A DNA stretch of 64,000 nucleotides from a virus (lineage: Duplodnaviria > Caudoviricetes): positions 32,001 through 96,000 of IMG/VR virus record IMGVR_UViG_2912765049_000001. The stretch is one strand, 5' to 3'. Below the pieces are notes generated by a model. It was not told the origin of the DNA, searched no databases, and saw nothing but the letters and a program-made list of their open reading frames with translations. Made by a program: the position numbers and the translations under genes. Of the stretch, positions 21,421 to 50,438 are shown piece after piece (position 1 is the first letter of the stretch; each line of letters opens with the position of its first letter).

Positions 21421-21678
21421 TCACGCTTCCCGGTGGATCACCAGGCCGCCGTCCTTCGTCCAGGTCCGCAGCGGTTCCCGCACCCCGCCGGCCTCCGCCC
21501 ACAAGGTGATCGTCACCCCGGCCATGCTGCCGTGCGAGCCCACGAAGCCGAGGAACTTCTCCAACGCCACGGCGCCGTCCGTCCACGTGCCCGTCACGGC
21601 CGGGCCGTCCTTCCGGAAGGTCACCGCGACATGGAACTCCTCGGCCTCGACCGGCTGTCCGGGGGCGGGACCGATCAC
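21421..21678 (-). CDS. Hypothetical protein coupled to recombinase
   Basis: GTGA overlap, GC3 bias. Confidence 0.65.
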   Translation of the reverse strand: MIGPAPGQPVEAEEFHVAVTFRKDGPAVTGTWTDGAVALEKFLGFVGSHGSMAGVTITLWAEAGGVREPLRTWTKDGGLVIHREA

Positions 21679-27929: not shown

Positions 27930-28319
27930 TCAGGCCGCCGCGGACGCGCCCTCGCCCGGGGCTGCGACCGGCCCGCGGTCGACGCCGGCGGGGGCGACCA
28001 GGCGCTCGAGGAAGGCGCCGATCAACTCGACGGGCACCTCGCCGGTGAAGGTCGCCGTCCAGAAGCGGGGCTTGGCGAGGACCGCGTGTCCCGGCTCGCC
28101 GGGCAGGAAGCCGACCGCCTGGACCTTCCACAGGACGTCGGTGGTGGCGTACTCGGCGGCCTCGGGCTGGAACACCAGCCGGGCCTGCCCGCCGGGAGCC
28201 ACGACCTGGGTGTTGGAGGACGGGTCGGTGTGCGGGGTCCAGCCGGCCGCTGTCAGGACGTTGAACGCGACCGCGGGGTCGCCTTCGTCCGCCAGGAGCG
28301 CCGGGACGTTCGTCGTCAT
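27930..28319 (-). CDS. DUF317-domain protein
   Basis: LTAAGW...APGG...WTATFTGEVPVELIGAF; typical of Streptomyces plasmids. Confidence 0.8.
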   Translation of the reverse strand: MTTNVPALLADEGDPAVAFNVLTAAGWTPHTDPSSNTQVVAPGGQARLVFQPEAAEYATTDVLWKVQAVGFLPGEPGHAVLAKPRFWTATFTGEVPVELIGAFLERLVAPAGVDRGPVAAPGEGASAAA

Positions 28320-28746
28320 GCCGTAAGTCCGTTCCTTCGGGGCGGGCGGAATTACCCGCCGCGTTTTCGGGTGGCCAGGAACGTAGCTCGCCCTCGGGAA
28401 CAACATCAACGGCCTCTGAAAAAACGTGAATTCGGCATTCTACGGGGATATCGAGTGCTCTTTCGGACGCGGCCTCGCCGCCCGCGCCCAGGCTCGTCAC
28501 CACAGGTGGATGGCCTACGGCCGTCACCCCCGACAGCTTCCCCAGGTTCATCCTGTCCCAGGTTCGTCGGCAACCGTTTCCACCCGTGGGCCGCTGGAAT
28601 TTTCCACCCGTGGCCGCGCCGAAACCCCCGTACTCAGCCCCTGCTCCTCGGCTTTAGCGAGCCCACTTCTGAGAAAAAAGCGGAGCCAGCGCCAAGGCGG
28701 CCCGAAACCCGTTGAGCTGCCCGCCGCACCAGTGCCAAGGTGGCTC

Positions 28747-29490
28747 ATGAGCAAGAAGAACGTCCGGGTGCCGGACGACAGCGAACTCGTCCGGCTGGCT
28801 GCCGCGGCATGTGAGAGCGCCGCGAGCAAGCTGGAGGCGGCCACGCTGCTGCTGGGAGCGGAGCAGTGGGCGGAGGCGTTCTACAACGCCGCCCTCGGCT
28901 TCGAAGAACTGGGCAAGGCGCACCTGTGCCTGACCGTGGTGATGATCCCCACCCAGTACCGCAGCGACGTGACGCCTCGGGAGTTCTCCGAGATGTTCAA
29001 CGGCCACGGCGCCAAGGCGGCCTTCGGGCACCTCGTGCTGCGCAGCCTGGTCGACCGGGACGCACCGGTCGCCGTGACCGACATGCTGGCCGAGGCCGAA
29101 GCGGCGGCCGCGCAGACCAACACCACCAAGTTCCGGGGCCTGTACGTCGACCTGGGCGCAGACGGCACGCTGCTGCACCCGAGCGACGTCGTGGAGAGCG
29201 ACGCCCGCTGGATGGTCGACCGACTGCAGACACTGCACGAGTGGATGGGCCCGATGTGCGCCGAGGCCGGCCGGGACCCCGACTTCCTGGCGTTCTTGGT
29301 CCAGTTCCGGGAGAACATTGACGCCGACGCGATCGCGGACGCCCTCGTGGCCGACCCGGAAGACTGGCTGCGCCAGCTGCGCGCTGCGGTCCAGGCCCCG
29401 TTCACGGCACTGCCGTCCTGGATGTCCGACGCCCTCCTGGCTCTCCCAGGTACGGCAGAGCTGTCACGCAGCGAGGCCGCGCAGCCCTGA
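28747..29490 (+). CDS. abiV: AbiV-family abortive infection (HEPN-fold) protein
   Basis: ALGFEELGKA, FNGHGAK, NTTKFRGLYVD. Confidence 0.85.
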   Translation: MSKKNVRVPDDSELVRLAAAACESAASKLEAATLLLGAEQWAEAFYNAALGFEELGKAHLCLTVVMIPTQYRSDVTPREFSEMFNGHGAKAAFGHLVLRSLVDRDAPVAVTDMLAEAEAAAAQTNTTKFRGLYVDLGADGTLLHPSDVVESDARWMVDRLQTLHEWMGPMCAEAGRDPDFLAFLVQFRENIDADAIADALVADPEDWLRQLRAAVQAPFTALPSWMSDALLALPGTAELSRSEAAQP

Positions 29491-32701: not shown

Positions 32702-33376
32702 GTGGAGAGCTTCTTTCAGCGGGTCGAGCAGGCGTGGCCGGCGGGACGCCGTGATCTTCACTGGCACCTGCTGCCCGCCCCGGCCACGGAGGCGGTGGCG
32801 CTCGGCAGGCCGTATCTCGGCCTGACCCTGACCCGCGGCCTGCACCGGGTCATACCCGAGTGGATGCACTGCACCGTTCTGCACGCCATCGGTGCCGACG
32901 TCGACAACGACCCGGCTGTCCGCGCCGGTATCGATCTTCTCGTCGACGACGTCACCCGCCGAGTCGCCGATGTCGAACCGTTCACGCTCACCTTCGGCCG
33001 GCCAGCCATCGCCCGGTCCGCGATCGAGGCGCCCGGCTCGCCGGATCGCCCGCATCAAACCCTCGTCGAGCACGTCATGGCGGCCCACCGCGAGCTGTGG
33101 GGCGACGCACACCTGCTGTCCCCCAGCAAGGCCCCCCACATCTCCCTCGCCTACGGCGGCGAGGACGCCGAAGGCATCGACCCGGACCAGCTCAACTCCC
33201 AGCTCGCCGACATCGAGGACGATCACGCGGTGGACGTGTACGTGGACCGCCTGCACCTGGTCGCCCAGCGGCACGACGGCGCCCGCATCACCTGGCAGCC
33301 GCTCGCCGAAGTCACGCTGAAGGGCGTCGACGACGAAGCCTTCCTCGACAGCATCATGGCCGAGCTGGACAACTGA
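32702..33376 (+). CDS. 2H phosphoesterase (2'-5' RNA ligase family)
   Basis: Two HxT/S motifs: MHCTV, PHISLAY. Confidence 0.85.
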   Translation: MESFFQRVEQAWPAGRRDLHWHLLPAPATEAVALGRPYLGLTLTRGLHRVIPEWMHCTVLHAIGADVDNDPAVRAGIDLLVDDVTRRVADVEPFTLTFGRPAIARSAIEAPGSPDRPHQTLVEHVMAAHRELWGDAHLLSPSKAPHISLAYGGEDAEGIDPDQLNSQLADIEDDHAVDVYVDRLHLVAQRHDGARITWQPLAEVTLKGVDDEAFLDSIMAELDN

Positions 33377-33403: not shown

Positions 33404-34258
33404 TCAGGTCGCAGGTACGAGCTGGGCCGTCACGCCGGTGGGATGCAGGAACTGCCGGGCACCGCGCAGTGTGGTGCGCAGATTCTGCTGGGTCGCCCGG
33501 CTGTCGAGGCGTACGTCGAGGGCGCCGAGAAGTGTGCTGTTGGCCCGCAGGCCCTCGGGCAGCCGGGAGGCGTCGAGGCCGTCACGGCGGGCGATGAGGA
33601 TGCCGAGCTCGTGACGGCTCACCGCGTCGGACCCTGCGAGATGGTGGATGCCGGCCGCGTCGCACGACGCCAGTTCGACAAGGGCGGCGGCCAGGTCGGT
33701 GACGTGCACCGGGCAGCGGATGTCGTCGGTGAACAGGGCGCCGTCGCGGGTGCCGGAGGCGAGTTCGTGGACGACGCGCTCATGGACCGAGCGCCCTTGG
33801 CCGATGATCAGCGAGGTGCGGGCGACAGCGGCCTTCGGGTACACGGCGAGGACCCCGGTCTCCGCCGCCGCTTTCGCCGCTCCGTACGGGGTGACGGGGT
33901 CGGGGAGGAAGGTCTCGTCGTAGTGGACTCGGGTACCGGAGAACACTGCGTCGCTGGAAACGTGGACCAGGCGGCTGCCGTGCGTTGCTGCGGCCATCGC
34001 GACCCGGATGGGGCCCTCCGCCGTCGCCGCCCAGTCGTCTTTGCGGCTTGCTGTGTTGATGACGAGATCCGGGCGCACCTCCGCCATGACGGCGTCCAGG
34101 CGTCCGGCATCCCGCAGATCGAGGGGGTACCACTCGGCTTGGGAGGCGTCGCCGGGCTTGGTCGCGTACGTCGCGGCTGTGGTGTGCCCGGCCGCTCTCG
34201 TCTGCCGGATCAGCTCGGCCCCTAGGAAGCCGCTGCCGCCGATGATCAAAGCTCTCAT
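33404..34258 (-). CDS. RmlD-like NAD(P)-dependent sugar-nucleotide reductase (extended SDR)
   Basis: GGSGFLG, HVSSDAVF, YGAAK, RTSL. Confidence 0.9.
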   Translation of the reverse strand: MRALIIGGSGFLGAELIRQTRAAGHTTAATYATKPGDASQAEWYPLDLRDAGRLDAVMAEVRPDLVINTASRKDDWAATAEGPIRVAMAAATHGSRLVHVSSDAVFSGTRVHYDETFLPDPVTPYGAAKAAAETGVLAVYPKAAVARTSLIIGQGRSVHERVVHELASGTRDGALFTDDIRCPVHVTDLAAALVELASCDAAGIHHLAGSDAVSRHELGILIARRDGLDASRLPEGLRANSTLLGALDVRLDSRATQQNLRTTLRGARQFLHPTGVTAQLVPAT

Positions 34259-34376
34259 GGGCGACACGGTAGACCGGACCCGGTGGGCACCGGCGGAGGC
34301 GGACGCCGCTGGTTCGGGTGTCCGCCTCCGCCGTCGACGTACCGGATCTGACCGCGCGGCCGGCCGCGCGCCGGGG

Positions 34377-34838
34377 CTACGTGTGAGGCTGCCAGACGTA
34401 ACGGACGTCTGGCTCACGCTCGTCGTTGCGCCGCCCGTCCGTCCGCTCGGCCTCTATGAAGCCGTGCCGTTCATAGAACCGCCGCGCCGGCATGTTGACC
34501 TGGAACGTCCATAGCGTCAGCCCGTCTGGCTGCTCCTGCTTGGCCAGGGCCATGAACCGATCGCCCAGCCCCCGCCCACGCCACGCTGGGTCGAGGTAGA
34601 GCTGCTTCAGCTCCACGCCGTTGAGCACCAGGACCCCCACCACACGGTCCCCGGTGACCGCCACCCAGGTCTCGTAGCGCGGCACCAGCACGCGTAAGAA
34701 CCAGTCCCGCACTTCGGCGTCGCTGTGTGCGCAACGCACTGACGGCAGCGCGGCGTTGAAGGAACGCAGCCATACGTCGGCGGCGGGGAACGCGTCGGCG
34801 GAGCCTGCACGACGGAGGACGACGGCGTCACTGTTCAC
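34377..34838 (-). CDS. GNAT N-acetyltransferase
   Basis: QLYLDPAWRGRGLG, NMPARRFYERHGF; TTA at 34695-34697. Confidence 0.9.
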   Translation of the reverse strand: MNSDAVVLRRAGSADAFPAADVWLRSFNAALPSVRCAHSDAEVRDWFLRVLVPRYETWVAVTGDRVVGVLVLNGVELKQLYLDPAWRGRGLGDRFMALAKQEQPDGLTLWTFQVNMPARRFYERHGFIEAERTDGRRNDEREPDVRYVWQPHT

Positions 34839-34850
34839 GGCGCGAGACCT

Positions 34851-36173
34851 CTACTTCCCTGGCCGTCCGAGCTGGTGGACGGTCCAGCCCGCCGAACGCC
34901 ACGGCTCGGGGTCGAGGGTGGTGCGACAGTCGACGAGCAGGGCGTTGGCGGGGCGGTCCACGAGGGCCTGGGGGTTGGCGTGCCCATACTCAGGCCACTC
35001 GGTGGCCAGGACGACGACGTCGGCGCCGTCGAGGGACGCGGGCAGGTCGTCGGTGTAGTCGAACTCGGGGTTGCGAATCAGCGCTGTGTTCACGGCCTGC
35101 GGGTCGTGGATGGTGACGGTGGCGCCGGCCTGCTGGAGGGCCTGGGCGAGCGCGAGGGCCGGACTCTCCCGGACGTCGTTGGTGCCGGGCTTGAACGCGG
35201 CGCCCCACACGGTGACCCGGGCGCCCTCGAGGGGATAGTCGCCCAGGACGCGGGTGATGAGGCCCAGGGCAACGTCGGTGCGGCTCTCGTTGATCTCCTC
35301 GGCGGCGCGCAGGAGGGTCGCTGCGCGGTCGGCGCCGAGCTGGCGGGCGGAGGCGGTGAAGGCGCGGATGTCCTTGGGGAGGCAGCCACCGCCGTACCCG
35401 ATGCCGGGCCTCATGCCGCCGCTGCCGATGCGCGGGTCGATGCCGAGGATGTCCACGATCTCGGCGATGTCGCCGCCGGCGGCCTGGCACATGTCGGCGA
35501 CGGCGTTGATGTACGAGATCTTGAGGCCGAGGAAGGTGTTGGCCGCGCCCTTGGCGAGTTCCGCGGTCTGCGGGTCGGTGACGAACAGGGGGGTTCCGGC
35601 GTCCAGGATGGGGGCGTAGACGGCTCGGATTGCCTTCTCGCCCTCGGGGGTGGTGAGACCGGCGATGAGGCGATCCGGACGCAGGGTGTCCTCGACGGCG
35701 TGTCCCTCGCGCAGGAACTCCGGGTTCCATACGACGTCGACGCGTTCGCCGGCGGGGGCCAGGCGCTGGGCGAGCTCGGTGACCTGGCGGGTCGTGCCGA
35801 CGGTGACCGTGCTTTTCCCGACGATGGTGCACGGCCGGTCGAGGTGGGGAGCGAGCTGGCGGATGGCGCCGAAGACCTGCCCGGTGTCGTAGGACCGGCC
35901 GTCCGGGCTGATGGGGGTGCCGACCCCGATGAAGTGCAGCTCGGCGAAGTCGGCGGCCTCCCGGATGCTGGTGGTGAACCGCAGGCGCCCGCTCGCGGTG
36001 TGTTGGGCAAGTAGCTCGGGAAGGCCGATCTCGAAGATGGGACAGTGGCCGGCGTTGAGCTGTTCCACCTTGGCTTGGTCGACGTCCACGCCGATGACCT
36101 CGTGGCCGAGTTCGGCCATCGCCGCCGCGTGCGGGATGCCAAGGTGACCACAGCCGATTACTGAAATTCTCAT
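34851..36173 (-). CDS. UDP-glucose/GDP-mannose dehydrogenase family protein
   Basis: GCGHLG, VGTP, KSTV, NPEFLREG, GYGGGCLPKD, AFKPGTNDVRES. Confidence 0.95.
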   Translation of the reverse strand: MRISVIGCGHLGIPHAAAMAELGHEVIGVDVDQAKVEQLNAGHCPIFEIGLPELLAQHTASGRLRFTTSIREAADFAELHFIGVGTPISPDGRSYDTGQVFGAIRQLAPHLDRPCTIVGKSTVTVGTTRQVTELAQRLAPAGERVDVVWNPEFLREGHAVEDTLRPDRLIAGLTTPEGEKAIRAVYAPILDAGTPLFVTDPQTAELAKGAANTFLGLKISYINAVADMCQAAGGDIAEIVDILGIDPRIGSGGMRPGIGYGGGCLPKDIRAFTASARQLGADRAATLLRAAEEINESRTDVALGLITRVLGDYPLEGARVTVWGAAFKPGTNDVRESPALALAQALQQAGATVTIHDPQAVNTALIRNPEFDYTDDLPASLDGADVVVLATEWPEYGHANPQALVDRPANALLVDCRTTLDPEPWRSAGWTVHQLGRPGK

Positions 36174-36207
36174 TCCTTGACTCTCACTCTGGGTGGGGGC
36201 CCGCGTG

Positions 36208-36255
36208 CGGGGCCGGGGAACAAGCCTCAGAGGCTAGCGCCGTTCCCCGGCCCCG
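36208..36255. terminator. Intra-operon stem-loop
   Basis: 14-bp perfect arms CGGGGCCGGGGAAC between two co-oriented genes. Confidence 0.55.
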
Positions 36256-36259
36256 TAGT

Positions 36260-37510
36260 TCAGGCTTTGTCGGCGCGGAAGTTCAGCAGCTGCTCCAGCT
36301 CACTGATGGCGTCGGCGGCCGTCTGCCGTACGACCACGTCACCGGTCTGCGGTGCCTCCAGCGGGTACTCGAACCAGGAACCGTCCGGACGGGGGAATCC
36401 CTCCGGGTCGACGATGAACACCTGGAGTCCGGCCTCGCGGGCCCGCTTGGCCACCTGCCGCCGGTCGGCGTGCAGCCCGATCACGACCAGGGCCTTGGCG
36501 TCGGGGTGGAAGGTGACCGGCGGGATCCGCTGGTCGTAGCGGCGCATGAACTGCTCCTCGAACCCGGCGCGGGCGCCGAGCGCGTCGAAGTTGTTCGTGA
36601 TGAACGGGCCGACCATGTGCCCGGCCTCCTCCATGCGCTTGAGCGCGTGCAGGGCCGGGGTGACCTCGGCTTCGAAGCAGGCCCGGTACATGTCCGACAG
36701 CTCGGCGACCTTGTCCTCGGTGTTGAGGAGCATCTCCGCGAGCAGCGGGTCCCGCCCCGGTGCCAGGACGAACGTGAAGCCCTTGCGGAGCTGCTCGTCC
36801 TCGATCTCGTTGACGTGGTAGATCTCGTGGAGCCGGTGCAGCGGCGGAATGCCGGCCTCGTAGGAGACGCCGCAGCCGACCTCGACCTGGAACGGCAGGA
36901 AGTCCGTGAGCTGCGCCAGGTTGTCGGCGTAGACCGGCTGTCCGGGGGTGTCCTTGACCCGGACACCGTGGCTCAGGACCTCCCACGGCCGGCGGCGGAT
37001 CGCCCTCGGCGGGTACGTGTTGACGGAGGTGAACGTGGTGTCGATGACCTGGTAGTCCTCCGGAAGCCGACGGCCCGCCCGCAGATCCTCCGGGTGCTCC
37101 TCGAGGCGAATCATGTGGACGCGCAGGTCGCCCAGTTCGAAGCGGCCCGGCCCCGTCTGCTTCCAGCCGCCCTCGGCCAGCATGGCGTGGTTCTGCTCCC
37201 ACGCCTCGTCGATCTCGGCCTGCGGCGCCGCCACAGAGTGGTACACGTACATCTGCTGCATGGCCAGCGCCGGCGCCGCGGTGGTGTCCACCAGGCCGTA
37301 CTGGTGCCAGTAGTGGACGATGCGGCGGCGTGCGTCACCTTCGCCCGTCCAGCCGGAGTTGGAGGCGGTCTCCTTCTGCTGGGTGCGCCGCCAGATGCCC
37401 TCCTCCACGAAGCGGGGCCGGTCCGCGTTCACCCCGTAGTAGTCGTGCCACTTGCTGAGCTGCTCCTCATCGAGCTGGTCGATGACCGTGACGGGAAACT
37501 GCACCTGCAT
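36260..37510 (-). CDS. Atypical SIR2/sirtuin-fold NAD-binding protein with unknown N-terminal domain
   Basis: GCGVSYEAGIP, TPALHALKRM, ITNNFDALGARAG, LVVIG; no HG motif or Zn module. Confidence 0.7.
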   Translation of the reverse strand: MQVQFPVTVIDQLDEEQLSKWHDYYGVNADRPRFVEEGIWRRTQQKETASNSGWTGEGDARRRIVHYWHQYGLVDTTAAPALAMQQMYVYHSVAAPQAEIDEAWEQNHAMLAEGGWKQTGPGRFELGDLRVHMIRLEEHPEDLRAGRRLPEDYQVIDTTFTSVNTYPPRAIRRRPWEVLSHGVRVKDTPGQPVYADNLAQLTDFLPFQVEVGCGVSYEAGIPPLHRLHEIYHVNEIEDEQLRKGFTFVLAPGRDPLLAEMLLNTEDKVAELSDMYRACFEAEVTPALHALKRMEEAGHMVGPFITNNFDALGARAGFEEQFMRRYDQRIPPVTFHPDAKALVVIGLHADRRQVAKRAREAGLQVFIVDPEGFPRPDGSWFEYPLEAPQTGDVVVRQTAADAISELEQLLNFRADKA

Positions 37511-37577
37511 GTCGTGTCCTCGATTTTTGATCCGAAACGGTCCGCCCCCGGTGAGGTGGGAGCGGCGCGGCAGGGGG

Positions 37578-38870
37578 CTAGCTGAGGGCGGCCACCGCGG
37601 CGGTGAGCGCGGCGGTCAGGAAGTCGATGTCCTCGCCGCTGGAGTTCAGCGGGGGCGCGACGACCAGGCCCTCGCTGCGCGGGTCACCGGCTCCGGTGAA
37701 CGGGTAGAAGAAGACGCCTTGCCGCTCGCACTCCTCCATCAGGGGCCAGAGCAGGCCAGGGGTGACCTCCACTCCGTACAGGTGGCCGAGGCCCCGTACG
37801 TCCCGCACGACCGGCTGTCCGGTCAGGGGCCGCAGGCGCGCCCCGAGCTGTTCTCCGCGCGCCTGGAAGGCGTCGAAGTCCATGGATTCCAGCTCGTCCA
37901 GGACCCCGAGGCAGGCCGCCGCCTGCAGGGGGTGGGTGGCCATGGTGCCCATCGCGGGCAGCGGGTCCGCGCCTTCGCGGCGCAGCAGCGGTGCGAGCTC
38001 GGGCGACACGAGCACCGCACCCACACTGGTGTAGCCGGCGCCGAGGCCCTTGGACAGGATGCACAGGTCGGGATCGGCGCCGTCCCAGTGGTTGCTGGCC
38101 AGGGGGGTGCCGGTGCGCCACAGCCCGGTCAGGACTTCGTCGTGGATGACGAGGACGTTGCGTTCCCGGCAGATCTCCTTGACGCGCCGGAGGTATCCGT
38201 CGGGCGGCACGTAGGCGCCGCCGGTGGTGCCGTTGACGGGTTCCAGGAGGACGGCGGCGACGTTCTCCGCTCCCCTGCTGTCGATCGCCTTCGCCACCTC
38301 GTCGGCGCACGAGGCGTCGCACGAGCCCGCTGCGTGGTGGTGGGTCGGCGGGTAGGGCGCCGGGAAGGCCGGGCCGAGGCCGAGCGCGTCCTCCGGGCGC
38401 GGGCGCCGGGCGTGGTTGCCGGCGAGCCCGAGGGTGAGCGCGCTCATCCCGTGATAGCTCAGGGTGGAGGTCAGGATGTCGCCGCGCCGCTTGCCTCCGC
38501 GGACGCGCGCGATGTTGCGGGCCAGCGCGACGGCGACCTCCACGCCGAGCGTCCCGCACGTGGCCAGTGCGATGGAGTCCTCTGGACGGCCCACTGCGCG
38601 GCACAGTCGGTTCATCAGCTCCAGTTGGGTGTGGGGCCGTACGACGGCGGCGCCGCCGAACGAGGAACGGGGGAACTGCTGCTCGATGCGGGAGAAGACC
38701 TTGGGGCTGCCGTGGCCCACGTTCACGCAGAGGAGGCCGCTCGATCCGTCGAAGATGCGGCGGCCGTCAGCGAGGTGGAGCCAGGGACCGCTCGCCGTCA
38801 CGACGTCGAGGTCGGGTAGTGGGCGGGATGAGGTCAGGAGCCGTTCGCGACTGGATAAGTACCGATCCAC
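37578..38870 (-). CDS. Class III PLP-dependent aminotransferase
   Basis: SYHG, AVLLEP, HDEVLTGLWRTG, DLCILSKGL, RGLG; TTA at codon 5. Confidence 0.95.
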   Translation of the reverse strand: MDRYLSSRERLLTSSRPLPDLDVVTASGPWLHLADGRRIFDGSSGLLCVNVGHGSPKVFSRIEQQFPRSSFGGAAVVRPHTQLELMNRLCRAVGRPEDSIALATCGTLGVEVAVALARNIARVRGGKRRGDILTSTLSYHGMSALTLGLAGNHARRPRPEDALGLGPAFPAPYPPTHHHAAGSCDASCADEVAKAIDSRGAENVAAVLLEPVNGTTGGAYVPPDGYLRRVKEICRERNVLVIHDEVLTGLWRTGTPLASNHWDGADPDLCILSKGLGAGYTSVGAVLVSPELAPLLRREGADPLPAMGTMATHPLQAAACLGVLDELESMDFDAFQARGEQLGARLRPLTGQPVVRDVRGLGHLYGVEVTPGLLWPLMEECERQGVFFYPFTGAGDPRSEGLVVAPPLNSSGEDIDFLTAALTAAVAALS

Positions 38871-39022
38871 GAAAGAAGTCCCTTCTTGGGTGTGCGCATT
38901 GGGGCGCACGGGATCACGGCGGGTCGGTTCATGTGCGGTGGGTGTCCGGGTGTGCGTCGAGCGCGTCCGGTGATGACGAGCGCGACCACTCACGCCCGGA
39001 GAGCTGTCTGTCAGCTGTTCCT

Positions 39023-39060
39023 CACCGTACCCTCAAACCCTTTCTTACGTATAGGGTTTG
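39023..39060 (-). promoter_or_regulatory. Promoter/operator of the enzyme operon, homologous to 7244-7281
   Basis: CAAACCCTATACGTAAGAAAGGGTTTGAGGGTACGGTG. Confidence 0.75.
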
Positions 39061-39253
39061 AATGCCGTTGTGCGGCCCTGCGAAGCACGGTGGGGGTACA
39101 TCTCGAGCATGGCGCCCTGCCGGACGCGACGTCATTGCTCCTTGGCGCGCGGAACATTGCGGGACGCCGTCAATGGCCACGAGTCCACTGCCCCGGGCGT
39201 TGGGTGCTCCGCTACCGTGAGCGGCCCGGGCCACGCATCCACGGGGGTGTGCC

Positions 39254-40670
39254 ATGGCGACAGTGACCCGCTCGCGCCGCGCGGCGATCCAGCGGGAGGC
39301 CGTACAGATCCGGATGCGGTGCCAGCGCTCGGGACATTCGACCGAGCGCACCGTGGCGGCGATCCGCGCGAGTCTGCCCGAGGTCTCTGCGCTCGAGGCG
39401 TGGCGGCTGGCGCTGGGCTGGTCACGGGCGGACACCGTCACCCAAGTCGCCGCGCTCTACCGGGCCGACGGGTTACAGCCCCCGGGCCTTTCGGAGTCGA
39501 TGCTGTGCCGCTGGGAACATGATCAGGAACGGCCGGGAGCGGAATACGCCGTGATGCTGTGCCGGGCCTACGGAGCACGGCTCGAACACCTGGGCCTGGG
39601 CCGTTGGGCCGGTGAAGGCGCTGGCCTTCGGTACCGTCTCCCGGAGCCCGTCGCGTGGGTGTCCGGCCCGCGGGAAGAGATGGAGCCGATGACCACTGAC
39701 GCCGGCCTTCCGGCCGTACGAGAATCTCTGCAGCTCGCCCTCCTCGCCGATCCGCAGGGCAGTCCGCTCGCGGCCCACTTGGCGGAGGCCGCTGTCGAGC
39801 ACTACGACCTCAACTACTCCAAGCACCCGCCGCAGACCTTGTTCAAGGAGATCCGCGACACCAGGGCCCTGCTCATGCCCGTGATGCAGGCCGCCGGCAG
39901 CACCCCCCCACACCGTCGAACTGCAGCGGCAGGTGGCCCGGCTGTCCGCACTGCTGGGCAACCTTGCCTTCCACCTCGACGACACGACCGGCGCGCGGAC
40001 CCATCTGGGTACCGCGGCCACCTACAGTGAGCGAGTGGGTGATGCGCGCCTGGTGGCTTGGGCGTGGGGCGCGCTGAGCTTGGTGGCCCGGTCCACCAAG
40101 CGGTACGAGCTGGCCTTGTCCCACGCCCAACGTGGCGCTGCCCAGGCCCCCGCCGGGCTCGTACGCGCGCAACTGCACGCCTGGGCTCTGCTGCCCTCCC
40201 TGGCGGCGCTCGGGCGCGGTCCGGAAGCGGACGCCGCGCTTGCGACCGCCATGCACGAACTGGAGACCGACGGCACCGGATCCGCGCCCGGCCGGTTCGG
40301 CTTTGACGAACCGGAACTTGCGCTGCACCAGGCCGAAGCCCACCTAGCGCTGGGCCGCGCCGAGCAGGCCGCGGCCCGGGCCGAAGCCTCCGCCGGCGGC
40401 TGCATCCTCGCCACGCCTGGCTGGGCAGCCGCCACCTTGGTCCTCGCCCGGGCCGAGGCCGCAGAACGCCCCGAGGATGCGGCCAGCCGCGCCCTGGATG
40501 TCCTCGACCGCGTTCCCCCTGCCCGGCTGCGCTCGACCGCCCGCGCCCGGCTCTCGCGCCTCGACGGCCAGCTGGCGGCGAGGACGGCGGGCCCCGTGGC
40601 CGACCTGCACGAAAGGCTGCAGCTGCTGCCTCCGCCCGTCGACGCCCACGGAGGCTCGGCCACAGCCTGA
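39254..40670 (+). pseudogene. XRE-family regulator with TPR-like C-terminus, frameshifted at a C7 run
   Basis: LEAWRLALGWS...SESMLCRWE...LCRAYG; removing one C at 39903-39909 joins the two ORFs; TTA at 39473. Confidence 0.8.
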
Positions 40671-42849: not shown

Positions 42850-44052
42850 TCAGGTGGTTGCGGTGAAGGCGTGCCGGGCGGCCAGCCGCTTGAGCGAGGC
42901 GAGGCCGGGGACGCCGTCGGCGGCGGAGCCGGTGTAGGAGCCGCCGGCCTTGCTGCGCTGCCAGGCGGCGTACGCGGTGACGGTCTTGGAGCCGAAGGAG
43001 CCGTCGGCGAACTCGCGCTTCAGGAGGCCCTCGGCGACCAGGGCGTCCTCGACGATGCGGACCTCGGTCGGGTAGGTGGTGTGTCCCTCGGCGGCCGGGA
43101 CGTCCTTCTTCGCCGCGGCGACCAGGTGGGCCACGCTGACCTTTGGCTTGGCCGGGGTGGGCGCCGGGTCGGCCGGGGCGGTCGCCTTGTACAGGACCTT
43201 GACCGTGCTGATCGCGCCCGGGTCCTGGTGGTCGTTGCCCGGAACGTCGCCGTGCGAGAAGTGGCCGCCCTTGGACTGCCAGACGCTGCGCGAGCGCGCC
43301 TTGCCCGCCCCCGGGTACTTCGCCGGGGGCCCGGCCGGGAAGACGTCCGGCACGCCCCAGGAGCGGGCCGCGGACAGGATCTTCTGCCAGCCCGGCTTCT
43401 TCGCCGGGTCCCAGCCGTTGGTCCACGGGCTCTTGGCGTAGCCGAGGACCTCGATCTGGATGCAGACGCGTCCCTCGCGATTGGTGCGGCGGGTGCCGTC
43501 GTTGCGCAGCGCCCGGCCGCTCTGGTTGAGCGGGCCGAACTGCCCGACCCGGTCGGTCACGGGGCAGTAGATGAGCTGCGGTTCGGAGGCGACCCGGATC
43601 AGGTACGAGCCGACCGACTCGAGGTACTTGCCGCCGGCCGGGGACTCGGTGCTGTGGTGCACGACCCGCGGGGGGTTGCCAGGGGTGTCCATCGCGCCGC
43701 CGATGGACCCGTCGCCGAGCCGGATCGCGCCGGAGATCCACACGGTGCCGGTGGCACCTCGCGGCAGCTCGTCCGCACCGGGCAGGTCGCCGGTGAGCGC
43801 GCCGACGGCCGGTTCGGGGTCCGGGCGCCGGATGATGAACGGCTCGGCACCCACCGGCTCGTACCAGTCCAGGTCACCGTCGTCGCGCAGCACGAACACG
43901 GTGCCCGGGCGACTGGAGTGCTCCCGGGTGAAGCGCGGCACGGTGTCGATCTCGGCGATGGCGCGGGCGGTGTCGACGTGCGCCTGGTCGACCTCGCCGC
44001 AGTAGGTGACGGACTGGTTGGGGTGAACGACGGCAGCGTGGTAGGTGGGCAT
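42850..44052 (-). CDS. Endolysin: amidase-2-like plus peptidoglycan-binding domain
   Basis: VVHHSTE, IQIEV, HGDVPGNDHQDPG; DGSFGSKT...ADGVPG. Confidence 0.85.
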   Translation of the reverse strand: MPTYHAAVVHPNQSVTYCGEVDQAHVDTARAIAEIDTVPRFTREHSSRPGTVFVLRDDGDLDWYEPVGAEPFIIRRPDPEPAVGALTGDLPGADELPRGATGTVWISGAIRLGDGSIGGAMDTPGNPPRVVHHSTESPAGGKYLESVGSYLIRVASEPQLIYCPVTDRVGQFGPLNQSGRALRNDGTRRTNREGRVCIQIEVLGYAKSPWTNGWDPAKKPGWQKILSAARSWGVPDVFPAGPPAKYPGAGKARSRSVWQSKGGHFSHGDVPGNDHQDPGAISTVKVLYKATAPADPAPTPAKPKVSVAHLVAAAKKDVPAAEGHTTYPTEVRIVEDALVAEGLLKREFADGSFGSKTVTAYAAWQRSKAGGSYTGSAADGVPGLASLKRLAARHAFTATT

Positions 44053-45099: not shown

Positions 45100-46094
45100 T
45101 CAGGTTCCGTCGATCAGGCGCTCGGCCAGGTACGGCGACCAAGTGCCCGCCGTGATGCCCTGGCCGATTCCGCAGGAGCCGTCCGAGTCGCCGGGGTACT
45201 TCACCCACAGCAGGTAGTCGGCGCCCGCGACGCCGATCGAACTGGGCACGCCCAGGCGTCGTCCGGCGGGGTTGCACCAGTCGACGTGCTGCCCGACCTC
45301 GTTCATGGCGCCGTTGCCGTTGCGGGCGGTGTCCACGACGAAGCCCTTGTTGGGCACCCCGAGGCGGGCGAGTTCGGCGGTGATCTGGGAGGCATAGGTG
45401 CAGCACACGTCGACGGCGTCGAAGTTGGCGACGTTGACCGCGAAGCCGCGGACCTGGGCGACGCCGGCGTCCTTCAGGCGGGCGGCGATCTCCGGCGGGC
45501 GGATCCAGGTGGCGTTGCCGCCGTCGAGGTAGACGGTGGTGGCGGGACGCGCGGCGAGGGCCTGCGCGGCATAGGCGACCAGGGCGGTGCGTTCGGCGCG
45601 GGCCGCGTCCGAGGGGAGGTTGCCGAGCTGGGCCAGGGAGTCGGGCTCGAGGATCACCAGGGCCGGGCGGTCGCCGATGCCAGCCGCGGCGGCGTCGATC
45701 CATGTCCGGTAGGCGTCCGGGGACGGCGAACCGCCGGAGCTCTGCCCGCCGTTGTCGCGGTTGAACATGTTGTACAGGGCGACGATGGGCATCTGTCCGT
45801 GGGCGGCGGCTGCGGCGACGTATGCGTCGAGGTCGGCCTGGATGTCCTTGTTCCAGTCGCCGAACCAGCGGGCGCCCGGGCGGCGGGCGATGGACCGCTC
45901 GAGCTTCTTGGCGCGCGGGTCGTCCGGGTTCAGCGTCAGCCACTTGGCGGCGTTGGAGTCGGGGTCGACGTAGAAGCCCTCCTTCACGGTCGAGCAGGTC
46001 AGCCGGACCTCGGTGAGGTAGACGGTGACGGCGCTGGACTGTCCGAGCTGGAAGGAGAGCTGGCCGGCGGTCGTCATCGTGGAGGTGAAGCTGA
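45100..46094 (-). pseudogene. CBM4-GH6 cellulase, 3' part (GH6 catalytic domain)
   Basis: FYVDPDS, NRD, ILEPDSL, VYLDGG, FAVNVANF, VVDTARNGNG, WCNP, LWVKYPGDSDG. Confidence 0.9.
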
Positions 46095-46334
46095 GAAGCT
46101 GTTTCAGAACCGGAGATCCGTGACGTTCTGTAACGGATGGCAGAGTCGTTCCGCTGTGTGTCGGGTATGGGGGCGTGTTCGCGCATAAGCGGGCAAGCCC
46201 GCACACGAAGCGGGGTATTTTCTGTCGTTTGTGGTGACCTGGGGGCGGGCGGCGGAGCGTGGAAGGTCTACGCGGGCCGGAGCGGTGGTGGCCGGTGAAG
46301 TGCCGGCCTTTTCGGGCCCCTGGGAGCGTGTGCC

Positions 46335-47270
46335 ATGGTCCAGACCGTCGGCAGTGTGCCGTGCGAGCGTTTCGATGATCTGGTGGACCAGTCAGTGAAG
46401 CTGGTCCGAGTGATGACGGGCTGCCAATTCGCACTCGGAGACTTCGCGCTGGAGATCGCGCCGCTGCGTACGCACGGCGGGAACATGGCGCTGGGGGAGG
46501 GCGAGGAGCAGGGGGTGGAGGACTCCTTACGCCTCTTCGCCGAGGAGATAGGACTGTCCTTCCACACGGTGCGGACGTATCGGTGGGTGGCCGCGCGGTG
46601 GCCGAAGAATCAGCGCCAGGAGGGCGTCTCCTTCGAGGTGCACCGGATCTTGGCGTCGGCGCCGGACGCGTACGAGTTGATCCAGCATCCTCCAGTCAAT
46701 GAACGGACGGGCCACTCCGAGTGGAGCGGGGACGCGGCGAAGCGAGCGGCGGGATGGGCGACCGCGACACCGGTGACGGCGGCGGAGAAGGTCGAGGCCA
46801 TCCGGGACCTTGCGCAGGACGAGGCGGTGGCTGCCCAGGCGGCATGTGACCTGCTGCACCGGCCTGAGGTGGCCTTCAAGGCGATGCGGGACCGGCAGGC
46901 CCGTGAGCTGGTCAATCAGGCCCAGTTCGATCAGGCCGAACTCGTCGAGGAAGGAGACGAGGAGGAGGCATGGTGGGACGAGAACGACGCTGGGGAGGAG
47001 GACGGCGTTGTTGATCCCGTCGCGATCGTGCGGGGTTTCCACCGGGCTATGGAGTTCACCGACTTGATCGGTGTCTGTCAGGGCTTCGTCGCCGGGGCGA
47101 GCCGGCTGGTTCCCCGACTGCGGGGACGGGAGTTCTCCGAATCCCAACTCGCGCTGGTCGCACGGCATTTAGAGAAGATCCGGGCGACGGCGGACTGGAT
47201 CGAGACGGCGGTGTCCACCGGGAAGGTGGACCTGGATGAGGCCCTGGCCGAGCTGCTGAGGGACAGGTAG
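46335..47270 (+). CDS. DUF6192-family (RacO-like) transposon accessory protein
   Basis: QFALGDFALEIAP, YRWVAARWP; TTA at 46527 and 47169. Confidence 0.75.
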   Translation: MVQTVGSVPCERFDDLVDQSVKLVRVMTGCQFALGDFALEIAPLRTHGGNMALGEGEEQGVEDSLRLFAEEIGLSFHTVRTYRWVAARWPKNQRQEGVSFEVHRILASAPDAYELIQHPPVNERTGHSEWSGDAAKRAAGWATATPVTAAEKVEAIRDLAQDEAVAAQAACDLLHRPEVAFKAMRDRQARELVNQAQFDQAELVEEGDEEEAWWDENDAGEEDGVVDPVAIVRGFHRAMEFTDLIGVCQGFVAGASRLVPRLRGREFSESQLALVARHLEKIRATADWIETAVSTGKVDLDEALAELLRDR

Positions 47271-47272
47271 CC

Positions 47273-47689
47273 ATGAAACGGCGGGCGGGACTGCCCGCTC
47301 ATGTTCACGGCGAAGCCGTACGCAAAGCCCTGCAAGAGGCACGTCCTGCCGGGCTGCACCTGAAACAGCTGGTCAAAGCTACCAAGTGCACCCCCGCCCA
47401 GGTCTGGACGGGCATCCGGTTCCTGCGGAAGATCGCGGTCAAGGAAGGACTGCCGCCGGTGACCTTCAACCGCCGGGACGGGTTCCAGCTGTCCGAGGAG
47501 CCCGAGGTGTGGATCGCTTACGAACGCGCGATCTTCGGGGCCGAGCTGCATCGCATCACGAATTTCATCACCGGGATCGTCGCCCCGCACGCCAAGCGCA
47601 CCCCCGAGGACGAGTGGGCCCGCCTGGTCCTGGAACAGCTCGGCGGGGTCAAGGCCACCCTGGAAGTCCTCACCCGCATGGAACGCTGA
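47273..47689 (+). CDS. RacP-like transposon accessory protein (wHTH-like)
   Basis: ALQEARPAGL...QVWTGIRFLR; between DUF6192 gene and transposase. Confidence 0.65.
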   Translation: MKRRAGLPAHVHGEAVRKALQEARPAGLHLKQLVKATKCTPAQVWTGIRFLRKIAVKEGLPPVTFNRRDGFQLSEEPEVWIAYERAIFGAELHRITNFITGIVAPHAKRTPEDEWARLVLEQLGGVKATLEVLTRMER

Positions 47690-47690
47690 G

Positions 47691-48653
47691 ATGACCTGCC
47701 CGAACGAGACCCGACCGCCAGCCGTGCGCGAGCGGCGCTACCCCAGCGACACTACGGACGCCGAATGGGCCGTCCTCGAACCGCTGCTGCCCGTCCCGGC
47801 CTGCCGGCTTCCCGCGGGCGGGCGCCCGGAGAAGCATTCGCGCCGCAACGTGGTCGATGCCATACGGTATGTGAACGACAATGGGTGCAAGTGGAGGGCC
47901 GTTCCCGTCGACTTCGGGATCCCCTGGCGCACGGTCTACGGGTTTTTCCAGCGATGGCGGGCGAGCGGAGACCTGGCCCGCATCCACGCCGAACTGCACC
48001 AGAAAGTCCGCGTTCACGACGGCCTCAATCCCCACACCGTCGCGGTGATCCTGGACTCCCAGTCCGTCAAGGGCGCCGAGACGGTGAGCCAGGACACCCG
48101 CGGCTTCGACGGCGGAAAGCTCATCAATGGCAGGAAGCGGCACCTGGCCGTAGACATGCGCGGCATGGCGCTCGCCGTCATGGTCACCCCTGCCGCCCCG
48201 CACGACAGTATCCCCGCCCGCGACCAGCTCTTCCGCCTGCGCCTGACCCATCCCGAACTCGCCGTCGCCTGGGCGGACTCCGCCTACGGCGGAACCCTCA
48301 TCGACTGGTCTCACTCCTTCCTCGGCATCACCCTCAAGACGGTGCCCCGCCGCAAAGACCAGGACGGCTTCGCCGTCCTCGCGAAGAGGTGGCGCGTCGA
48401 GCGGGCCATCTCGTGGATCATGAGAGCCAGGAGAAACGTCCGCGACTACGAGCGGCTCATCTCCCACAGCGAGGCCCACATCACCTGGACCTTCATCACC
48501 CTCATGGTCCGCCGCCTCACCCACCCTCCCCGGCCACCCCGCACGTCACCACACCCCGTCGAACCGGTCGAGACGAGCGCCGACAAGCCCAAGCCCATAC
48601 GCCTGCGGAAGCCGTCGAACACCATCCGCCTCGCCCCAGCTGCTCTGAGCTGA
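47691..48653 (+). CDS. IS5-family DDE transposase
   Basis: YPSDTTDAEW, LDSQSVK, GRKRHLAVD, WADSAY, RWRVERAISW. Confidence 0.95.
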   Translation: MTCPNETRPPAVRERRYPSDTTDAEWAVLEPLLPVPACRLPAGGRPEKHSRRNVVDAIRYVNDNGCKWRAVPVDFGIPWRTVYGFFQRWRASGDLARIHAELHQKVRVHDGLNPHTVAVILDSQSVKGAETVSQDTRGFDGGKLINGRKRHLAVDMRGMALAVMVTPAAPHDSIPARDQLFRLRLTHPELAVAWADSAYGGTLIDWSHSFLGITLKTVPRRKDQDGFAVLAKRWRVERAISWIMRARRNVRDYERLISHSEAHITWTFITLMVRRLTHPPRPPRTSPHPVEPVETSADKPKPIRLRKPSNTIRLAPAALS

Positions 48654-48965
48654 CACATCTTGCGGCCGGTGTCACTCCGAGATCCGGGTGGCTAGCAGAT
48701 CTGTCTTCATCGGTGCCACTCGGGGCAATTCCGTGTGCGCGCAAACCCACTGCCAACGGGTCGCCGTTGCGGAGGACCGGTACCCGAGGGGACAATGCGT
48801 GGAGGTGCCGGGTGGTCATCCCGGCGAAGTGTTGGAGGCGCTGCTTGTGAACACCGCATCGCGGTGCGCCTCGCTGTGCGCGCCAGACGCTGACCACTTC
48901 GCTTCGCCCACCGGCTGACCTGCTTCGTTCGCGGTGGGCGCTTCCTCTTATGGGAGACCACCGTA

Positions 48966-50267
48966 GTGCCCGAAGACTTCTTGACGGGTGATCGCCGTCC
49001 TCTGACAACGGTTCTTGGCGCCAACTTCGTTTCGATCACTGGGAATTGCCTCACGTACATGGGCGTGCCGTGGTTTGTGCTGCAGAGCACGGACAGTGCC
49101 GCCAAGGTGGGGATCGTCGCGTTCTGCACACTGCTGCCCGTAGTGCTTGCTGCGCTCGTCGGTGGTCCGGTCATCGACCGGATCGGGCGACGGCGGGTGA
49201 GTGTCGCCTCGGATCTCGCCTGCGGGGTTGCCGTTGCGGCGATCCCGCTGCTGCAGTTCGCCGGCATCCTGCATTTCTGGATGCTGTGCGTGCTGATGGC
49301 GATGACCGGGCTGTTCCGTTCGCCGGGTGAGACTGCCCGCGGAGTGCTGTTGCCCACGCTCGCCGAACGCGCCGCAATGCCGCTGACCAGGGCCGCCGGG
49401 TTGTACGACGGTGCGGCACGCTGTGCGGCGCTGACTGGATCCGCTCTCGGAGGTGTGCTGATCGCCGTACTCGGTGCCGAGAATGTCCTGTTGGTGGATG
49501 CCGCGACCTTCGCTGTGGCCGCGCCGCTGTTCGCGTTCGGGGTGCGCGGTCTGCCTGAGGCGCAGGCCCGACGGCGGGTCGAGCCCGCGTCGTTGCGTGC
49601 CTACCGTCGTGAACTCGCGGAAGGGTATCGCTTCGTGGCGGCCACGCCGTTGCTGTTGGGCCTGTGCCTGATGACGCTGGTCACCCGGGGGCTCGATCAG
49701 GGATGGAGCGCCGTGCTCCTCCCGGTGCATGCCCGTGAGAAGCTTGATGGTTCCATCGATCTCGGTCTGCTGAACGCGGCGTTTGGTATCTGCGCACTCA
49801 CGGGGGCGCTGGTCTACGGTGCGGTGGGCAGCCGGTTTCGGCGGTGGCCGGTGTTCACGGTTGCGTTTCTCATCGTAGGCCTGCCGCGCTTCGTGGTGGC
49901 CGCCTTCACCGACACCTTCGGGCCACTGGCCGTGATCATGGCGGTTGAGGGCCTCGCTTGCGGTGTGCTCAACCCCATCATGGCCACCGTGACGTATGAG
50001 ACGGTGCCGGAGGCACTGCGCAGCCGGGTGCTGAGTGCGACGACAGCCTCGGTCCAGCTGGTCACTCCGCTGGGCGGACTGGCTGCGGGCTTCCTCGTGG
50101 ACTCGGTCGGCCTGCCCTCCACGCTGCTGACGATCGGGGGTGTGTACCTGCTCGCCACGCTGTGCCCGGTGATCTTCCCGGCCTGGAGACAAATGGACAG
50201 TACCGGCTCTCCCCACGACAGGGCGGAGGGCTCGCTGCCGCAGAGTTCGGGGTCGAAGCGGGTGTAG
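48966..50267 (+). CDS. MFS efflux transporter (transposon cargo)
   Basis: About 12 TM segments, GPVIDRIGRR motif A; codon usage differs from backbone. Confidence 0.9.
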   Translation: MPEDFLTGDRRPLTTVLGANFVSITGNCLTYMGVPWFVLQSTDSAAKVGIVAFCTLLPVVLAALVGGPVIDRIGRRRVSVASDLACGVAVAAIPLLQFAGILHFWMLCVLMAMTGLFRSPGETARGVLLPTLAERAAMPLTRAAGLYDGAARCAALTGSALGGVLIAVLGAENVLLVDAATFAVAAPLFAFGVRGLPEAQARRRVEPASLRAYRRELAEGYRFVAATPLLLGLCLMTLVTRGLDQGWSAVLLPVHAREKLDGSIDLGLLNAAFGICALTGALVYGAVGSRFRRWPVFTVAFLIVGLPRFVVAAFTDTFGPLAVIMAVEGLACGVLNPIMATVTYETVPEALRSRVLSATTASVQLVTPLGGLAAGFLVDSVGLPSTLLTIGGVYLLATLCPVIFPAWRQMDSTGSPHDRAEGSLPQSSGSKRV

Positions 50268-50438
50268 TCACGCTGATGGCCGTTTCGGCGCTGCTCACAA
50301 ACACTTGACGTCGGTGCTCCCCGTCGCGTGATCAGGCGGGGGGCCTTGTCCTCTTCGGTGAGCCGCAGGCGCCAGACCAGGTCCTATATCAGGCGCCAGT
50401 CACGGAACGTGACAGATCTCCGGTTCTGAAACAGCTTC

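Follow-up and report, generated by a model that had tools for sequence, protein, structure and literature searches.

The 64,000-nucleotide stretch of DNA analyzed here (hereafter the window) comprises bases 32001-96000 of the 151,949-bp contig C2 (IMG/VR record IMGVR_UViG_2912765049_000001), a phage-plasmid that is the second contig of a two-contig Streptomyces genome of 9.77 Mb. It contains an operon coding for a class-III aminotransferase, a sirtuin-fold protein (SIR2L), an NDP-sugar 6-dehydrogenase (UGDH), a GNAT N-acetyltransferase, and an RmlD-like reductase, and a regulator gene lies divergently opposite it. This operon is the phage-plasmid version of a mobile cassette that is usually accompanied by a regulator. 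The pairing of SIR2L with UGDH is obligatory in Actinobacteria, and the other enzymes vary from one locus to another.

The SIR2L-UGDH pair and its accessory genes

Eighty genome loci of SIR2L were compared, their neighbors being scored by tblastn. SIR2L is followed by a gene of the UGDH family (or, in a few loci, preceded by it) in 79 of them, and the single exception ends at a contig edge. The full set of five genes is present in at least 16 loci beyond the window, in two gene orders, on plasmids, on chromosomes, and on one viral contig. The gene combination is real and goes far beyond chance. A preliminary description of the window had named a lack of co-occurrence in other genomes as a point that would tell against it, but the genes do co-occur in many genomes, even with shuffled order. 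The same description treated the five enzymes as a unit, which is not what the comparison gives: the core is SIR2L and UGDH, and the aminotransferase, GNAT, and reductase make up one interchangeable accessory set of several.

Four arrangements can be distinguished. Type A, the one of the window, has the order (divergent XRE-like regulator)-aminotransferase-SIR2L-UGDH-GNAT-reductase, and some of its loci lack GNAT, the reductase, or both. Type A' contains the same genes reordered, as SIR2L-aminotransferase-UGDH-GNAT-reductase. Type B, the commonest, has the order XRE regulator-146 amino acids (aa)-67 aa-SIR2L-UGDH-~110 aa-(NUDIX). Type C has the order NUDIX-SIR2L-UGDH-~110 aa-(NUDIX). The protein encoded after UGDH in most type B and type C loci is small and helical (109-115 aa, e.g., L004:12705-13031), with the motifs KVxEEAxEA and VQxE/DL, and its gene is tandemly duplicated in L003:12707-13417. 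By eye it resembles a MazG-type NTP pyrophosphatase, an assignment that was rejected, as neither a PDB profile search nor Pfam supports it. Genes of APH-family kinases adjoin the cassette in L008 (NZ_CP108236.1, 303198-307153) and in L089:6482-7366, and the plasmid of L008 also has an ABC-F-like ATPase and two NUDIX genes. These APH kinase, ABC-F-like, and NUDIX neighbors may be further accessory enzymes.

The cassette is mobile and patchily distributed. The type B cassette of ~6 kb is common to 28 of 28 loci, while its flanks are common to only 0-7, and SIR2L is present in 37 of 400 sampled congeneric species (~9%), some of the copies being truncated or interrupted by stop codons. In a Nonomuraea prophage the cassette is found between a tail Dit protein/CHAP lysin and WhiB, and in a Nocardiopsis island it accompanies an NB-ARC STAND protein and a type I-C CRISPR-Cas system. 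Other neighbors include GmrSD_N at one locus and Mrr, UvrD/PDDEXK, and CHAT at another, and transposases, a resolvase, and a tyrosine recombinase are also found near cassettes. Judged from these genomes, the distribution appears to follow the pattern of an accessory, conflict-type cassette.

Among 5.8 billion proteins searched there are hundreds of SIR2L homologs of ~410 aa, which come from Streptomyces, Nonomuraea, Kitasatospora, Nocardiopsis, and Microbispora and almost none of which has a name, and a profile search of 1.84 billion representatives gave ~300 clusters, 119 of these at E ≤ 1e-30. The full-length members all have two domains. Distant members occur in Acidobacteriota, Myxococcota, lineages of the candidate phyla radiation, Bacilli, Clostridia, and other groups, and UGDH is rarely adjacent there. 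The distant genome loci were found with a re-ordered alignment; a scan with a single protein found none. Within two positions of SIR2L, ~40 such loci have 149 genes, which were scanned with Pfam. The commonest families are the glycosyltransferases GT1/GT4 (7), SAM methyltransferases (5-6), HD (4), PF20706 (3), and UGDH (2), PF20706 being a family of GT4 glycosyltransferases from conflict systems. In individual metagenome loci the relatives of SIR2L stand amid runs of GT2, GT4, and GT8 genes and sugar-type methyltransferases. Two large viral contigs (146 and 223 kb) have SIR2L inside glycosylation clusters with GT1/GT4, GT9-like, GT2, and sulfotransferase genes, in one case with the order tail protein, 270-aa UGDH, SIR2L, GT2, and sulfotransferase. 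The common thread of the wider family is nucleotide-linked sugar chemistry. That the cluster might be a fragment of a known polysaccharide locus, another point that the preliminary description had named against itself, does not hold in Streptomyces; yet distant members of the family do lie in glycosyltransferase clusters.

In the 270-aa UGDH of the 146-kb IMG/VR contig (L103:9108-9920), the NAD loop and the catalytic Cys (GFGGACLPKD) are retained, whereas the UDP-binding domain is missing altogether; the stop codon of its gene overlaps the start codon of SIR2L. Because the dehydrogenase of some phages has lost its own UDP-binding domain, the sequences suggest that SIR2L and the dehydrogenase could form a two-subunit enzyme. 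Long fusions of SIR2L were searched for across the family, and none involves UGDH. One fusion carries a C-terminal NUDIX domain (L096:582-2546, P0146), and a second, located beside an O-methyltransferase, carries an unassigned C-terminal extension of 370 aa (L171:1679-4006, P0271). A search of the ESM Atlas with SIR2L returned nothing past the family itself.

Fold and active site of SIR2L

No usable match resulted when the SIR2L sequence was compared with Pfam, PHROGs, PADLOC, PDB sequences, and phage records. Pfam has no match at E ≤ 0.01, including PF02146, and the NCBIfam model for CobB scores 15.8 bits against a cut-off of 320. The assignment to the sirtuin fold came not from these searches but solely from an AlphaFold2 model (pLDDT 84.5, pTM 0.84), in which residues 1-190 form an alpha/beta domain and residues 190-416 a sirtuin fold. 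Against solved structures, the C-terminal domain has VIA Z scores of 18.7 to 3u31 (PfSir2A) and 17.4 to 1ici (Sir2-Af1). Among canonical sirtuins Z ranges from 13 to 18.7, it is 12.5 for SirTM, and it falls to 8.8-9.5 for the SIR2 domains of the defense proteins ThsA, Avs5-SIR2, and KomC. Foldseek gave 118 matches at E ≤ 0.001, and the best among the matches listed are all sirtuins. The profile of the SIR2L family matches Sir2-Af2 (E = 5e-4) over the core motif region, where GCGVSxEAGIPP and TNNFD align. The sirtuin fold that had been proposed from the letters of the window is thus confirmed, both by structural comparison and by the profile alignment.

The active site departs from that of sirtuins. 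The GxGxS loop and the (T/Q)NxD motif persist in SIR2L, with D309 invariant even in members with 25% identity and N307 mostly kept (at least 90%). The Asp of the sirtuin QNxD motif contacts nicotinamide, and because this residue is invariant the predicted binding of NAD+ by SIR2L is still plausible. The catalytic His expected ~15 residues past (T/Q)NxD is absent: RRYDQ is found there in 28 of 28 close members, and across 28 diverse members only R323 of this site is invariant. A Zn ribbon with two CxxC pairs is also absent from SIR2L, which has two Cys in total, neither of them in a CxxC. In conclusion, SIR2L lacks what defines a deacylase and also what defines a defense NADase. The family invariants are W40, R42, R184, G212, G214, H228, D309, R323, H347, D349, R350, and R351. 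They include a strand motif in the C-terminal domain, HADRR, and in the N-terminal domain an invariant WxR and several Arg. Residues 225-300 form an insert that is helical in the model. The N-terminal domain, when folded alone, has a pLDDT of 73.5; Foldseek finds nothing for it at E ≤ 0.001, and its best VIA Z is an unconvincing 5.8, to Mog1/PsbP/DcrB-like sandwiches. On this model it is left without a fold assignment and is not claimed as a new fold.

SIR2L therefore has both likenesses to and differences from the canonical and ADP-ribosylating sirtuins (Sir2Af1/2, Sir2Tm, PfSir2A, and SirTM). It shares with them a Rossmann-type fold (Z 12.5-18.7), the GxGxS loop, and the Asp of (T/Q)NxD. Unlike them, it is devoid of the catalytic His and of the Zn ribbon and does not match PF02146; it adds a 190-aa N-terminal domain and the HADRR motif, and its obligatory gene partner is a sugar dehydrogenase instead of a macrodomain or an acyl-protein substrate system.

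SIR2L is also the member of the operon that has been exchanged within one phage lineage. The window was compared with a sister viral contig from IMG/VR, L101 (141.7 kb, 97% complete according to CheckV), and with the plasmid L007. Nucleotide identity is 0.76-0.93 over the aminotransferase, UGDH, GNAT, and reductase and drops to 0.52-0.71 over SIR2L, with the breakpoints at the edges of the SIR2L gene. The SIR2L proteins of the window and of the sister allele are 46% identical (41% in the N-terminal domain and 52% in the C-terminal domain). Because a single member was replaced with gene precision within one lineage, these alignments suggest that SIR2L may carry the specificity of the cassette and that its alleles may be interchangeable against the same UGDH.

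The operon, its regulator, and the phage-plasmid

The features of the operon and its surroundings are listed in Table 1. The preliminary description had placed five co-oriented genes beside the lysis genes and had noted the lack of a glycosyltransferase, a nucleotidyltransferase, and an exporter; both statements agree with the results of family searches, the second among the neighbors tested. The five genes are all on the minus strand and have a coding-type G+C content at third codon positions (frame-specific values and family searches). In operon order they are separated by 67, 86, 12, and 118 bp, the last value, which had been given before, being recovered with a start of the reductase at 34258 (codon MRALIIGGSGFLG).

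Table 1. Positions of the operon, its regulator, and other features in the window
Feature	Position	Strand	Remarks
AbiV-type HEPN gene	28426-29490		PF18728, E = 4e-12; same accessory stretch as the operon
2H phosphoesterase (2'-5' RNA ligase superfamily)	32702-33376	+	PF13563, E = 8e-8
RmlD-like extended short-chain dehydrogenase/reductase (SDR)	33404-34258	-	PF04321, E = 2e-37; last gene of the operon
GNAT N-acetyltransferase	34377-34838	-	PF13508 and PF00583; YjaB-like
NDP-sugar 6-dehydrogenase UGDH	34851-36173	-	TIGR03026, 417 bits (cut-off 190)
Sirtuin-fold protein SIR2L	36260-37510	-	416 aa; no Pfam match; fold from AlphaFold2 model
Class-III aminotransferase	37578-38993	-	PF00202, E = 1e-65; first gene of the operon
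Divergent intergenic region	38994-39253		AT-rich patch
XRE-like regulator, NsdA/TPR-like C-terminus	39254-40670	+	Broken by +1 frameshift
Endolysin	42850-44052		Lysis/tail block adjoining the operon

Apart from SIR2L, the operon consists of enzymes of ordinary families. The coordinates of the aminotransferase are those of its longest open reading frame (ORF). Because its homologs at other loci have only 428-434 aa, the true start is probably ~100 bp inside, near 38870-38900. Its nearest structures are class-III and omega-transaminases, and the enzyme is of the omega-transaminase type, which ruled out a DegT sugar aminotransferase. UGDH has all three Pfam domains (PF03721/PF00984/PF03720), aligns to 4a7p with E = 2e-88, and keeps the GGGC(L)PKD, NPEFLREG, and Lys/Asn motifs that hold the catalytic Cys, Lys, Asn, and Glu. 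With these motifs intact it can be regarded as a bona fide enzyme. Of the equivalog models, AglM and TuaD fit it best, at 320 and 312 bits (cut-offs 670 and 700), and it is an extra paralog, the three chromosomal UGDH genes being 48%, 39%, and 29% identical to it. The reductase contains GxxGxxG and YxxxK, and its score for the rmlD equivalog (TIGR01214), 113 bits, is under the cut-off of 224. The PADLOC models (2023 database) found nothing meaningful in the five operon proteins and the two fragments of the regulator, the only match being a marginal one of UGDH to E1-E2 (E = 0.0045).

The regulator gene is read in two frames, 39254-40030 and 39933-40670, because of a C7 run at 39904-39910; in S. 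muensis the run is C6 and the ORF, of 471 aa, is intact. The C7 may reflect a sequencing error; alternatively, the gene may really be inactivated, perhaps by phase variation. Of the XRE-TPR regulator of the preliminary description, the divergent position stands; but the TPR/NsdA-like C-terminus is below threshold (the TPR_12 and NF053720 matches are under the curated cut-offs), a helix-turn-helix was detected solely in related regulators at other loci, and the gene is frameshifted here. In the sister phage L101 the regulator is absent, although the cassette is kept. Just upstream of the aminotransferase, the AT-rich patch contains two 9-nt arms, TCAAACCCT and AGGGTTTGA, that form a perfect inverted repeat around an 11-nt spacer (39033-39061). 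By its sequence the repeat is a candidate operator, and it is conserved only in the near-identical locus of S. muensis. No sigma-70-like consensus was found in the intergenic region (38994-39253), and scans for consensus promoters and terminators were uninformative.

The contig that carries the operon is a phage. C2 has a complete virion module, including TerL, portal, scaffold, major head, neck, tape measure, minor tail, and endolysin genes. In the window, whose G+C content is ~71%, the operon is followed on its right by a GntR regulator, a poly-gamma-glutamate hydrolase, the endolysin, a peptidase, tail proteins, the tape measure protein (1732 aa), and a neck protein. The major head protein, scaffold, portal, and large terminase are farther along C2, which also encodes a ParB-like/methyltransferase and FtsK/SpoIIIE-like proteins. 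Neither a terminal inverted repeat nor a circular overlap was seen in C2. The contig is essentially a temperate phage genome of ~150 kb that is probably maintained as a separate replicon. The element is also present in S. muensis, where identity is 100% for terminase and capsid and 97% for the cassette locus. The TerL and capsid of L101 are 93% and 81% identical to those of C2, and the position of its cassette is syntenic. The earlier term "phage-borne" is therefore justified, both by the full virion module and by the cassette at the same place in the sister phage.

The genes around the operon are less stable. The AbiV-HEPN gene is missing from the element of S. muensis, and in L101 no more than a short 5' piece of the gene can be aligned. 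This gene marks the variable stretch around the operon as what looks, from these comparisons, like a hotspot for variable, defense-type cargo. The 2H phosphoesterase gene is convergent with the end of the operon, 27 bp away, and is missing at this position in S. muensis and L101. It is a possible accessory gene but lies outside the conserved cassette. Enzymes of its family act on cyclic phosphates, among them ADP-ribose 1'',2''-cyclic phosphate. A gene resembling tyrosine integrases (window 21675-22862) and a SPDY/DUF317 gene (27930-28409) are found to the left of the cassette. Within the tail-gene block, positions 46000-50300 have a lower G+C content (0.67) and contain a transposase-like gene at 47691-48653 (phrog_4716, phrog_33747) and other plus-strand ORFs, probably an insertion sequence that entered the virion module. 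The element also has at least three DNA methyltransferase genes (window 3423-4991, C2:109118-110197, and C2:111415-112728), one of them fused to a ParB-like domain, which would fit anti-restriction self-modification.

Possible roles of the cassette

The explanation we favor, with a probability of about 0.4, is that the cassette is a nucleotide-sugar/NAD-based modification module acting in conflict, with SIR2L as its transferase. In its favor are the constant pairing of SIR2L with UGDH, the mobility and patchiness of the cassette, its conflict-type neighbors, its carriage by a phage lineage with the allele swap, the sugar and nucleotide links of the wider family, and the retained motifs of SIR2L and UGDH. 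By its family membership, UGDH would oxidize a UDP-hexose to the uronate. In the variant of the window, the RmlD-like reductase, the omega-type transaminase, and GNAT would convert a nucleotide-sugar intermediate with a carbonyl group into an acetamido derivative, and in other variants the NUDIX enzyme and the small helical protein would trim nucleotide diphosphates instead. SIR2L, the sole candidate transferase, would take a nucleotide-activated sugar, either the UDP-sugar acid or the ADP-ribose of NAD+, and attach it to a target, which the faster-evolving N-terminal domain would recognize. The role would be accessory and conflict-related, such as superinfection exclusion, defense, or a protective modification of the element or the host, and not classical NAD+ depletion. 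A use of ADP-ribose as direct substrate of the dehydrogenase, the transaminase, and the reductase, all of which act on aldehydes, was left as speculation, since UGDH keeps canonical UDP-sugar motifs. More tentatively, SIR2L could be a new kind of sirtuin-fold enzyme that works with UGDH in moving an activated sugar or ADP-ribose onto a sugar, nucleic-acid, or protein target, and the pair a new modification-based family of anti-phage or exclusion systems that does not act by NAD+ depletion.

Several observations weigh against such a modification module. The defense-island context is drawn from a handful of annotated loci and may be less general than it appears. With RRYDQ standing where sirtuins have their catalytic His, cleavage of NAD+ would not be assured, and we know of no precedent for a sirtuin-fold glycosyltransferase. 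Class-III transaminases are not the usual aminotransferases of nucleotide sugars. The association with glycosyltransferases is found only in distant relatives (7 of 149 neighbors for GT1/GT4, at ~40 loci), and none is recognizable in the Streptomyces cassettes. Finally, the swapping of SIR2L alleles against the same UGDH clade argues against a tight allele-specific complex.

The set of enzymes in the window recalls the Ugd-ArnA-ArnB route to UDP-4-amino-4-deoxy-L-arabinose and related pathways of amino-uronic sugars, which also combine a UDP-sugar 6-dehydrogenase, an SDR, an aminotransferase, and an N-acyltransferase. However, the SDR of the operon is RmlD-like and not ArnA/UXS-like, the aminotransferase is of class III and not DegT/ArnB, and the acyltransferase is a GNAT and not a formyltransferase. 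Transferases of the ArnC/ArnT type are missing, and the sirtuin-fold protein has no counterpart in that route.

The cassette could also be a specialized-metabolite cluster, which we consider unlikely. UGDH, the reductase, the transaminase, and GNAT would then build an amino- or acetamido-uronic nucleotide or a nucleoside-type compound, SIR2L would add a second moiety, and the product would be diffusible (an antibiotic, an anti-phage compound, or a signal) and controlled or sensed by the XRE-TPR regulator. All members are indeed metabolic enzymes with intact catalytic motifs, and the tailoring genes vary by locus as in biosynthetic clusters: L094 has a methyltransferase, a glutamine-synthetase-like gene, and a permease, and NZ_CP108236 has ABC-F, APH, and NUDIX genes. 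There is also a parallel in Ukko, a metabolic operon of four enzymes with demonstrated protection of Streptomyces against phages (bioRxiv 10.1101/2025.01.08.631966). Operons of the Ukko type resemble the cassette in being short, rare, made of ordinary-looking metabolic enzymes, and largely restricted to Actinomycetota, and a phage-blocking compound has been proposed for them; but their enzyme families are entirely different. Against a metabolite cluster, an exporter or a self-resistance gene is missing from most cassettes, the core amounts to just two genes, and a gene-precise allele swap of a single enzyme would be unusual in a pathway with a fixed product. The regulator, moreover, is frameshifted in the window and missing in L101, so that nothing speaks for the earlier suggestion of a product serving as a signal to be read by it.

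Lysogenic conversion or virion glycosylation has somewhat poorer odds. Here a modified uronic sugar would be placed by SIR2L or by host glycosyltransferases on a cell-wall glycopolymer, masking the receptor, or on virion proteins or DNA. In favor of this, the cassette lies directly downstream of the tail-lysis block, is kept at the same place within the phage lineage, and has phage relatives in which SIR2L is next to a tail protein, glycosyltransferases, and a sulfotransferase. Yet most cassettes are chromosomal or plasmid-borne and have no phage genes, and just one actinobacterial viral contig of IMG/VR, and no record of an isolated phage, has the cassette. Phage glycosylation clusters and PF20706 GT4 systems do host distant relatives of SIR2L; the Streptomyces cassettes, unlike them, have no recognizable glycosyltransferase, and no flippase or polyprenyl-phosphate transferase either.

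A classical abortive-infection NADase is improbable. Such a system would use the N-terminal domain as a sensor of infection and the sirtuin domain to destroy NAD+, leaving auxiliary parts to UGDH, NUDIX, and the other enzymes. SIR2 domains are used by many defense systems (Thoeris ThsA, DSR1/2, SIR2-HerA, SIR2-STAND/Avs5, and Kongming KomC), with which SIR2L shares the sirtuin fold, the residence on mobile elements, the proximity of defense genes, and a variable non-catalytic domain; the cassette is also found in prophages. Kongming reportedly couples a SIR2 effector to nucleotide-metabolizing enzymes. The defense SIR2 domains ThsA, Avs5-SIR2, and KomC are among the structural matches of SIR2L, but their similarity is weaker (Z 8.8-9.5), the fold being far closer to canonical sirtuins (Z 13-18.7). 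The catalytic His required by NADases of the ThsA and DSR types is absent, PADLOC gives no match, and a HerA, SLOG, STAND, or pAgo partner is lacking. The partners of SIR2L are instead UGDH, NUDIX, the transaminase, GNAT, and the reductase, and the obligatory one, UGDH, itself needs NAD+.

Phage counter-defense, in which the enzymes would remove or rebuild NAD-derived or nucleotide immune signals (ADPR-based messengers, UDP-sugars), is very improbable. In its favor, the cassette lies in the accessory region of a phage lineage, SIR2L is linked or fused to NUDIX at some loci, a 2H phosphoesterase is beside the operon here, and the phage pathways NARP1-3 are known to restore NAD+ (PMC13464706). 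Against it, bacterial chromosomes hold the majority of copies, each with an XRE regulator of its own, UGDH would have no obvious role, and no likeness to the NARP enzymes is known, including NARP3 as described.

The searchable literature on SIR2 together with UDP-glucose or nucleotide-sugar dehydrogenases in defense contains no description of the cassette that we could find, and neither the Aravind-lab survey of NAD and viruses nor a language-model preprint on defense mentions it. Sirtuin-fold proteins in conflict systems are already known; what is new is the pairing with UGDH, together with the absence of the two hallmarks of sirtuins and the surroundings of glycosylation genes. There is a fair, though minor, chance that the chemistry itself belongs to an entirely new category.

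At present, a sirtuin-fold protein encoded on a mobile element is taken to be either a deacylase or a defense effector that burns NAD+. SIR2L keeps the NAD-binding scaffold and has lost both hallmarks, and its genetic tie to nucleotide-sugar enzymes, across phyla and phages, points to a chemistry that has so far not been attributed to this fold. With its two to six genes the cassette is compact, and it is self-contained, provided with its own regulator in most versions, and available in natural variants, which makes it directly testable in Streptomyces hosts. If it proves protective or modifying, a nucleotide-sugar-based mechanism would be added to the conflict between phages and their hosts, and several hundred proteins now called hypothetical would gain a function.

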